Shown piece after piece: positions 6,824-7,672 of a stretch of DNA of 12,669 nt. The position numbers and the translations under genes were made by a program. The stretch lies in the IMG/VR virus record IMGVR_UViG_638341196_000007; one strand, given 5' to 3'. Under the pieces are notes generated by a model, which was not told the DNA's origin, made no database searches, and worked only from the letters and a program-made list of their open reading frames with translations. Numbering within the stretch: the first letter of the stretch is position 1; every line of letters starts with the position of its first letter. This DNA comes from a virus. Lineage: Duplodnaviria; Heunggongvirae; Uroviricota; Caudoviricetes.

Positions 6824-7672
6824 GTGCCACCTCCATGCGGATACGACCAGCAAAAAAGCAGATGTGATCGCGCACCAGAGAACGGCGAGCATCGCGTTCA
6901 GACTCGGCAGCAATATGATGAATTTTGGCGGTAATTGTCGGGCAATCGCGGCGAACTGCGGCGATAATCCAGATAAATTGCGGTTTTTGGGTAGTGGTAG
7001 TAGCCAGCATGTGGCAGCCTCCTTGTACTGGGAGTTCTTCCCACCACCGGAGCTGCGAAACTCGCTGGTGGTGGACTGAACAGAGTTCGCAGTACCGGCG
7101 TACAAGGAAACCGGCCAGCCTTTCGGCTGCCCTGTCCAGCCCACCATAATTTTGCAAGCGACGCGGATTATAACCGCATCACTGAAAAAAGTGTGAGTCT
7201 GGCTAACGGCACAAAAAAAGACGCTCGGCGCGTCATGTGTCGCCTCGTACATTTCCGGGCTGCGAAACCCGGCACCCGTTTTATGAGGTGCCTTATAACC
7301 ATAAACCGTGTTGCCGCATAACGGCAAGCTCTTTTTTATGGACTCCGAAAACTCACTATTGGAAGCACCAGATGCACAATACATCGCGCTCATTTCGTTA
7401 ACGTCGCGCGTGTGGACGAAGGTTTTTGTGGAGTCACTACGCGAGCAGAGAAAGCCATCTACGACCAGAAATTCTCTGGCGCAGCCGCCGACCTTCTCAA
7501 CGCTAACACCATCGACCGTAATTTCTGACATAGTTAAGGCATTCGCTCCCACCACCAGAAAATGATAAACTTTGCTTGTATCTGCTGTATTAATGCCAGA
7601 CTTTGCTGTCATATTGCTGGATTTTGGCGACATACCAGCCAGTGAAAATATCTTCTTCTGGACGGTTAGCAT
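6605..7672 (-). CDS. long open frame (355 codons) starting at a well-coupled ATG (7672); only the 5' part is credibly coding and the 3' extent is unresolved (alternative to the two small-gene calls at 6816-7010 and 6605-6823)
   Basis: ATG 7672-7670 with GGAGGT SD, overlapping the stop of the 60-aa gene (AAATGCTAA); no stop in frame until 6605; the frame runs through the hairpin-dense tract and two SD-bearing small ORFs. Confidence 0.3.
6816..7010 (-). CDS. hypothetical protein (64 aa, [10 protein letters not shown]...)
   Basis: ATG 7010-7008 with AAGGAGG SD 8 nt upstream; its TAA overlaps the next ATG; embedded out of frame in the long 6605-7672 ORF. Confidence 0.4.
   Translation of the reverse strand: MLATTTTQKPQFIWIIAAVRRDCPTITAKIHHIAAESERDARRSLVRDHICFFAGRIRMEVAHD
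7010..7340 (-). promoter_or_regulatory. GC-rich hairpin-dense leader; candidate attenuator / riboregulatory RNA upstream of the small-gene array and primase
   Basis: Series of adjacent perfect stems read directly (7311-7327, 7271-7292, 7255-7272, 7220-7234, 7116-7129, 7041-7074); octamer CTGCGAAA present in two loops; long-range pair CCTTGTAC (7021-7028) / GTACAAGG (7100-7107) partly covers the SD of the 7010 ATG. Confidence 0.3.
7213..7234 (-). terminator. terminator-like hairpin inside the structured tract (GACGC-N5-GCGUC followed by U7 on the minus strand)
   Basis: Plus-strand A7 at 7213-7219 then GACGCTCGGCGCGTC 7220-7234; stem only 5 bp, so weak. Confidence 0.3.

Follow-up and report, generated by a model that had tools for sequence, protein, structure and literature searches.

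Within a 12,669-nucleotide (nt) stretch of viral DNA (IMG/VR record IMGVR_UViG_638341196_000007, Caudoviricetes; hereafter the window), the hairpin-dense tract at 7010-7340 is very probably an RNA-based immunity module belonging to an integrated satellite-type element that resembles P4. Switches of this sort are well known from phages and satellites; this one is real and looks functional, yet it is ordinary. A preliminary description of the window had seen in this tract a regulatory RNA or attenuator between regulator and replication genes, comparable in position to the immunity region of satellite phage P4. We found that the tract matches the Rfam families isrK and C4 and that its stems covary, in support of the proposed regulatory RNA, and the comparison with P4 proved closer than one of position, as P4 carries the same two families, in the same order, with a homologous small open reading frame (ORF) downstream. 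The tract is therefore a homologue, and not a mere analogue, of the seqA–CI–seqC region of P4 and of c4–icd of P1.

Two RNA families with covarying stems

An Rfam scan at curated thresholds returned three families in the window, two of which lie in the tract, both on the minus strand. The first, an IsrK/P4 seqA-like leader RNA (7214..7291, minus strand), matches RF01394 (isrK) with 69 bits against a gathering score of 50. The second, a C4/P4 CI-type antisense RNA (7064..7151, minus strand), matches RF01695 (C4) over its full length (1-87/87) with 81.1 bits against a gathering score of 45. The search of Rfam suggested in the preliminary description placed both RNAs above their gathering scores. 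All genes of the window lie on the minus strand, and the hairpin tract is likewise read in the minus sense.

The folding and covariation analysis that had been suggested alongside was run on a set of 67 loci. With the small ORFs of the window and of P4 as queries, 66 loci were retrieved from diverse Enterobacterales, and the loci compared were the window, P4 and the 65 Enterobacterales loci that include upstream sequence. Custom RNA models built from the window and P4 sequences found the leader in 67/67 loci and the C4 RNA in 67/67, and the two RNAs stood in the same order, at near-fixed spacing, in all 65 loci with upstream sequence. Compensatory changes were present in the C4 RNA, in the leader and in a third structure, the hairpin that presents box a2.

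A long closing helix that encloses two hairpins is the covariation-supported trait of RF01695, and it is present in the window. The outer stem (7146-7130 with 7085-7069; 17 base pairs (bp)), which is the dominant one and was absent from the preliminary description, encloses hairpin 1 (7129-7125 with 7120-7116) and hairpin 2 (7115-7111 with 7098-7094), the latter also new. The loop of hairpin 2 bears box b′ (7111-7100, core CCUUGUAC), and box a′ (CUGCGAA, 7092-7086) lies in the multiloop junction. Across the 27 pairs of the C4 RNA, 99.8% of the alignment cells were paired and 13 pairs showed compensatory changes (0/500 shuffles, slid controls at most 52%).

The leader consists of stem 1 (7291-7285 with 7278-7272), stem 2 (7271-7267 with 7260-7256), whose loop bears box a1 (UUUCGCAG, 7267-7260), a linker with box b1 (UGUACGAGG, 7251-7243) and an intrinsic terminator (GACGC 7234-7230 / GCGUC 7224-7220, then U7 at 7219-7213), all on the minus strand; the terminator was flagged by a terminator scan. 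Here 95.5% of the cells were paired, with compensatory changes in 8 of 17 pairs, two of them in the terminator (0/500 shuffles, slid controls at most 41%).

Downstream of its own outer stem, the C4 3′ strand can form a second pairing. In the alternative hairpin at 7041..7074 (minus strand), CCACCACC (7074-7067) pairs with GGUGGUGG (7048-7041), a downstream copy of the C4 5′ strand, and an inner closing pair (GAG 7063-7061 / CUC 7052-7050) presents box a2 (UUUCGCAG, 7060-7053) in the loop. This hairpin and the C4 outer stem are mutually exclusive. The preliminary description had listed it as the stem CCACCACC/GGTGGTGG, and it was paired in 99.4% of the cells, with compensatory changes in 6 of 11 pairs (5/500 shuffles, slid controls at most 56%), for example CCACCACC/GGUGGUGG in the window against CUAUCGCC/GGCGAUAG in P4. 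A small hairpin just before box b2 (7043-7039 / 7033-7029) was 75% paired in the alignment, with controls near that value.

The pattern that the preliminary description had named as speaking against its proposal, namely no covariation together with coding-type conservation, was not what we found: the stems covary, and the long frame that runs through the tract has no excess of variability at third codon positions.

The single sequence also folds well. The minus-sense RNA from 7340 to 7000 reaches −146 kcal/mol (z = −6.0; 0/100 dinucleotide shuffles as good), and the plus-sense fold of the tract has z = −4.8. The tract is GC-rich, as had been stated, with 54% GC against 48% window-wide, in the top 8% of 331-nt windows. 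Each of the six perfect local stems claimed for it was located: TTGCCG/CGGCAA (7311-7327), GGCACC/GGTGCC (7271-7292), CCGGG/CCCGG (7255-7272), GACGC/GCGTC (7220-7234, followed in the minus sense by U7, 7219-7213), CAGCC/GGCTG (7116-7129) and the a2 stem (7041-7074). A further stem, which was not among them, is a 10-bp linker hairpin (7157..7183, minus strand; 7183-7174 with 7166-7157, loop UUAUAAU) seen in the minimum-free-energy fold. Between the leader terminator and C4, a hairpin is predicted in nearly all loci (L002-L068) with unrelated sequences; its length is 10 bp in the window, against about 20 bp in P4. The TATAAT at 7172-7167 was considered as an internal C4 promoter and was unsupported by a consensus promoter scan.

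Upstream of the leader, a sigma-70 promoter equivalent to PLE of P4 is predicted at 7298..7327 (minus strand), with a −35 element TTGCCG (7327-7322), an 18-nt spacer and a −10 element TATGGT (7303-7298), and with transcription predicted to start near 7291. The window arrangement TTGCCG-18-TATGGT aligns with the TTGCCT-18-TATAGT of PLE, and the hexamers TTGC.. and TA(T/C)AGT are kept at the same register in most loci, whereas the spacer is not. The promoter stays a prediction, because a simple consensus promoter scan of the window missed it. Of the stem at 7311-7327, the presence was confirmed, but not its part in a regulatory RNA: it sits in the promoter spacer, is specific to the window lineage and probably lies outside the RNA. 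On the plus strand, a T-run follows the same hairpin, and the two together are scored as an intrinsic terminator, although the plus strand has no gene upstream of it; the hairpin is unconserved in the relatives. The plus strand as the functional strand, with short ORFs only and this unconserved terminator-like hairpin, was rejected because both Rfam matches and all genes are on the minus strand.

Recognition boxes and proposed regulation in trans

The repeated loop octamer of the preliminary description, CTGCGAAA, occurs at 7053 and 7260 and nowhere else, and its two copies are the a1/a2 target pair. Box a′ of the C4 RNA pairs with UUCGCAG at 7266-7260 and at 7059-7053, both inside the octamer copies. 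Box b′ has two targets as well. It pairs with b1, with one G-U pair, and with b2 (GUACAAGGAGGC, 7017..7028, minus strand), which covers AAGGAGG (7024-7018), the Shine-Dalgarno sequence that serves the Icd-like ORF described below; the b′:b2 pairing (7111-7100 with 7028-7017) spans 12 nt, including two G-U pairs. The b′ core CCUUGUAC complements GUACAAGG(AGG) and GUACGAGG. The long-range pair that had been noted between CCTTGTAC (7021) and GTACAAGG (7100) is indeed complementary over 8 nt and overlaps AAGGAGG upstream of the minus-strand ATG at 7010. The stem proposed to sequester this Shine-Dalgarno sequence was thus right in part: there is a pairing over it, which is b′:b2, but it is more than a cis stem, as the pairing strand belongs to a discrete C4-type RNA.

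Across the comparative set, the boxes vary between loci (seven a-types, about 13 b-types and 35 combinations among 67 loci), and each locus matches itself. Runs of at least 7 nt were found for the own a′:a2 and b′:b2 pairings in 67/67 loci and for the own a′:a1 and b′:b1 pairings in 66/67, and non-self box combinations reached 7 nt in 17-36% of cases (36% for b′:b2). The sole exception is a locus of Mangrovibacter yixingensis (L038, 28-330), in which a1 (GUAGGAA) and b1 (CUCAAUGG) mismatch the locus's own a′ (UUUCCAC) and b′ (CCGUUAGA), and a2 and b2 match; the locus has the look of a recombinant whose leader is mismatched.

Three further loci share boxes with the window. The C4 RNA of the Stx1a-converting phage Stx1_14040 (L071, 2604-2691) has the a′ box CUGCGAA, as in the window, and a different b′ (CCGUUGAC), so that half of the specificity is common. 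In two IMG/VR contigs (L072 and L073), the exact recognition core of the window C4 lies on a different int–AlpA–AntA/B–DUF927 island, which is 85% identical to the window, with the identity confined to about 540 bp of module and icd. These two contigs suggest, from their sequences, that the immunity cassette moves between satellite backbones, and among the sequences compared the box pair of the window (CUGCGAA / CCUUGUAC) is found only in this lineage and, apparently transplanted, on the other satellite backbone. It is possible, though on balance doubtful, that the boxes form a reassorting two-key specificity code in which the window has its own immunity group and, jointly with this, that an overriding translation in the Eta-like frame no longer yields a division inhibitor. 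If this were true, satellites and lambdoid prophages could be in partial cross-talk, given the shared a-key and the transplanted core.

In P1/P7 and in P4, c4 and CI are excised from a longer transcript and confer immunity in trans (PMC4825925, PMC3632133). Pairing of CI with seqA and seqC leads to termination, and SeqA has a structural homologue in IsrK (PMC4825925); repression of the P1 icd-ant operon requires c4 (PMC8198154). For the P4 mechanism we rely on the summaries given in PMC4825925, PMC3632133 and PMC10111431. In the window, the leader (7291-7214) ends at the intrinsic terminator, with a1 in a hairpin loop and b1 just downstream, and read-through leads into the C4/CI-type RNA (7151-7064), whose b′ loop and a′ junction complement a1/b1 and a2/b2, the latter set close upstream of the Icd-like ORF. 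By analogy with P1 and P4, the C4-type RNA would be cut from the transcript, at its 5′ end by RNase P, and would accumulate; it would then pair with a2/b2 on new transcripts and block ribosome entry at the Icd-like ORF, and the untranslated RNA would end, through polarity of the Rho type, ahead of the small ORFs and of the gene for the primase-helicase. With termination before the replication genes, we propose that the element would therefore be quiescent and immune to a second copy. The a1/b1 leader would be a second target on the nascent RNA, and the short terminated leader may also titrate C4 as a decoy, the activating role shown for IsrK of Gifsy-1. Transcripts from upstream promoters would be translated across the module, in an Eta-like frame whose start is coupled to the DUF4222 gene, and this translation would override the block.

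The same pairings bear on a purely cis-acting attenuator, in which alternative hairpins (the C4 outer stem against the a2 hairpin, and the terminator at 7234-7213) would set read-through with no RNA acting in trans. Such an attenuator would account for the intrinsic terminator and for the two conserved, mutually exclusive pairings of the C4 3′ strand, and there is a precedent in the isrK-orf45 mRNA of Gifsy-1, which alternates between two cis conformations (PMC4825925). However, the target boxes are duplicated on either side of C4, they covary three ways and they reassort as modules, as a diffusible specificity determinant predicts, and both P1 c4 and P4 CI act in trans (PMC4825925, PMC3632133, PMC8198154). 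A purely cis-acting device is for us an unlikely account of the tract; cis switching may coexist with the trans action of the immunity RNA rather than replace it.

The Icd-like ORF and the Eta-like frame

The first regulated gene of the module is an Icd-like/P4 Kil-like ORF of 64 amino acids (aa) at 6816..7010 (minus strand), which matches NCBIfam NF033153 (phage_ICD_like) with E = 1e-19 and is 39% identical to the P4 ORF at 8365..8168. An identical protein is named "host cell division inhibitor Icd-like protein" by the Prokaryotic Genome Annotation Pipeline (PGAP).

A longer Eta-like open frame of 355 aa (6605..7672, minus strand) spans the entire RNA module, and its ATG (7672-7670) overlaps the DUF4222 gene upstream at the stop codon (7668-7666). 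Within the module, the frame and P4 Eta share 34% identity. The eta gene of P4 extends over CI and seqA and contains kil, nested, as its 3′ part; the translation of Eta and Kil controls termination, which is prevented when eta is translated from the late transcript (PMC10111431). Whereas P4 kil is nested in frame inside eta, the long frame of the window is out of phase with the Icd/Kil-like ORF. The two frames are in phase in 62 of the 67 loci, P4 included, and out of phase only in the window and two relatives (L003 and L007), where the spacer between the Shine-Dalgarno sequence and the ATG is 1 nt shorter than in the other relatives. The Eta-like frame of the window has 62 open codons across the Icd-like ORF and then runs on, in phase, into the next gene (ATG at 6823).

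This frame raises the question of whether the tract is no more than a piece of a protein-coding gene (Ash/Eta, a "Bro-network" family, 355 aa) with incidental hairpins. The match to Pfam PF10554 (Phage_ASH) covers residues 124-232 of the Eta-like frame, i.e., 7303..6977, which is exactly the RNA module (E = 2e-28, 99.2 bits against a cut-off of 26), and the stretch carries the PGAP label "ash family protein" (pseudogene). In 65 of the 67 loci, a single frame crosses the module without a stop, at a constant phase relative to the RNA columns, and the other two frames are closed; the start codon overlaps the upstream stop, and P4 Eta is reported to be translated (PMC10111431). Yet the variability of the alignment columns is equal at codon positions 1, 2 and 3, both in C4 (0.49/0.53/0.54 bits) and in the leader (0.50/0.50/0.49), and therefore reflects RNA constraints together with a constraint against stop codons rather than ordinary protein evolution. 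Compensatory changes in the stems and coordinated changes between distant boxes also speak against a protein, and the Phage_ASH model matches the obsolete "cI protein" ORF of P4 too, whereas the P4 immunity factor is an RNA (PMC4825925, PMC3632133, PMC10111431). A pure protein-coding reading was rejected on the codon-position analysis, and it seems most unlikely that the hairpins are incidental to an Ash protein. The Phage_ASH family largely reflects what the leader/C4 module yields when it is translated in the Eta frame, and the frame is most likely kept free of stop codons so that translation can pass through, which does not explain the structure.

The element, its relatives and the meaning of the module

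The gene order of the window, read on the minus strand, is int – AlpA – AntA/B – DUF4222 – RNA module – Icd-like – small ORFs – primase-helicase. The module has the AntA/B-family gene (8674..7841) on its upstream side; downstream come the small ORFs and a primase-helicase that has Zn-ribbon, Toprim and DUF927 domains. P4 shares with the window the promoter layout, the a and b boxes on either side of the RNA, a b2 box on the Shine-Dalgarno sequence, a homologous first ORF and a long Eta-type frame; it also has a primase-helicase downstream and int and AlpA-type genes upstream, so that the P4-type order is found here on one strand. Its Rfam matches run in the same isrK-then-C4 order (isrK 8692..8615, c4-a1b1 8705..8653, C4 8507..8420), and C4 is followed by GUGAGAA, UUCACAGGAGG and the ATG of the ORF homologous to the Icd-like one; these P4 sites correspond to seqA, CI RNA, seqC and kil as published, an equivalence made explicit in the literature (PMC3632133, PMC4825925, PMC10111431). 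The two elements differ in their boxes (a = UUCGCAG and b = GUACAAGG in the window, a = GUGAGAA and b = UUCACAGG in P4), and heteroimmunity is accordingly expected for the window element. They also differ in the linker from leader to C4 (62 nt, 7213-7152, against 107 nt, 8614-8508, in P4) and in the AntA/B and DUF4222 genes that stand between alpA and the module in the window.

The immI region of P1/P7 (a1b1 – c4 – a2b2 – icd – ant) resembles the window in its C4 RNA of family RF01695, in its Icd-like first ORF and in the logic by which an antisense RNA would block the ribosome site of that ORF; in the P1-like phage vB_EcoM-673R5 (L069), the leader lies at 2505-2594, C4 at 2618-2705 and the annotated Icd at 2760. 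The cargo of P1 is the antirepressor Ant, downstream of icd, whereas in the window the AntA/B-like gene is upstream and the cargo is the small ORFs and primase-helicase; membership in a P1 immI operon was ruled out, as ant is not downstream of icd. In Salmonella Gifsy-1 (IsrK – orf45/STnc1160 – anrP), the shared features are an isrK-family RNA (RF01394), an intrinsic terminator with partial read-through, a processed RNA of complementary sequence further downstream and a first small ORF that gates downstream expression (PMC4825925). There, however, an antirepressor is the cargo, and the short RNA is described as activating its own read-through mRNA at the level of translation. Phage_ASH maps onto the RNA module of the window as it does onto the old P4 "cI" ORF, but the conservation in the window is RNA-like and not protein-like. 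In Stx phages, the module lies between the cro/cII region and the replication genes.

The wider element shows several features besides the module. Past the primase, at 1-1091 (minus strand), there are homologues of the P22 DNA-ejection protein gp7 (PF25688, E = 1e-69) and of DUF2824 (E = 1e-61), where P4 differs; no Pfam match to sid, delta or psu was found among the window ORFs tested, in a window that covers part of the element only. The gp7-like and DUF2824 cargo, odd on an island of the P4 kind, is a hint that the helper may be P22-like. An int-alpA RNA motif (RF02996) lies between the integrase and the DUF6387 gene (10409-10476, minus strand; 46.7 bits against a gathering score of 35.8). 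At about 11596-12502, an insertion of about 0.9 kb with ORFs for IS4/IS5-family transposases (DUF4096, DDE_Tnp_1) interrupts the integrase gene at its 5′ end; this insertion sequence (IS) is missing from a near-identical element (L074), in which an overlap of about 10 bp at the junction is consistent with a target-site duplication. The 1.1-kb region was found in 1093 of 5426 complete E. coli genomes, and the E. coli chromosome in which PGAP names the Icd-like protein bears the same element beside tRNA-Thr/proA.

That the module is an inert relic, intact in sequence while its function was lost as the host element decayed, is a very remote prospect: the IS in the integrase and the copy in strain UTME-6, with a primase truncated by an IS, would fit it, but the pairings, boxes, Shine-Dalgarno sequence, promoter and terminator are all intact, copies at least 99% identical are present in 327 E. 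coli records, and the immunity core is also found on the different satellite backbone of L072 and L073, with an identity limited to the module.

Several points count against an RNA immunity module in the window. The repeats are weak within one sequence: a repeated 8-mer arises in 53% of dinucleotide shuffles, so that the octamer alone is not significant, and the arrangement of two direct copies of a 7-mer with the reverse complement between them arises in 7.8%; significance was drawn from the comparison with other loci. The RF03163 (c4-a1b1) model matched 7304..7252 with 22.5 bits, under its gathering score of 46.7, with the a1 and b1 boxes still present, and P4 itself falls just under this threshold (44.1 bits). 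As the Eta-like frame is out of phase, unlike in P4, the step of anti-termination by translation may differ. Each dynamic step of the proposed mechanism rests on analogy. Finally, with its integrase interrupted by the IS, this copy may be a defective element whose module has ceased to matter in vivo.

Both RNA families, the pairing logic, their occurrence both in prophages of the P4 type and in other satellites, and their overlap with the eta/Ash ORF are already published: P4-like prophages use IsrK and C4 homologues, named seqA and CI (PMC3632133), and the Rfam C4 and isrK models match satellites (PMC10111431). The local peculiarities, i.e., the box pair, the phase shift of the Eta-like frame and the antirepressor-family gene upstream instead of downstream, are minor, and the current understanding of the mechanism is unchanged. 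For annotation, the tract is better labelled as isrK/seqA-like and C4/CI-type RNA genes with their targets than as an "ash family protein" pseudogene, and the Pfam Ash family is best read as the RNA module translated in the Eta frame. The comparative set lends the three-way base-pairing model of C4-type immunity clean support from natural sequences, and the reassortment of boxes among satellites and prophages helps to predict which elements are co-immune.

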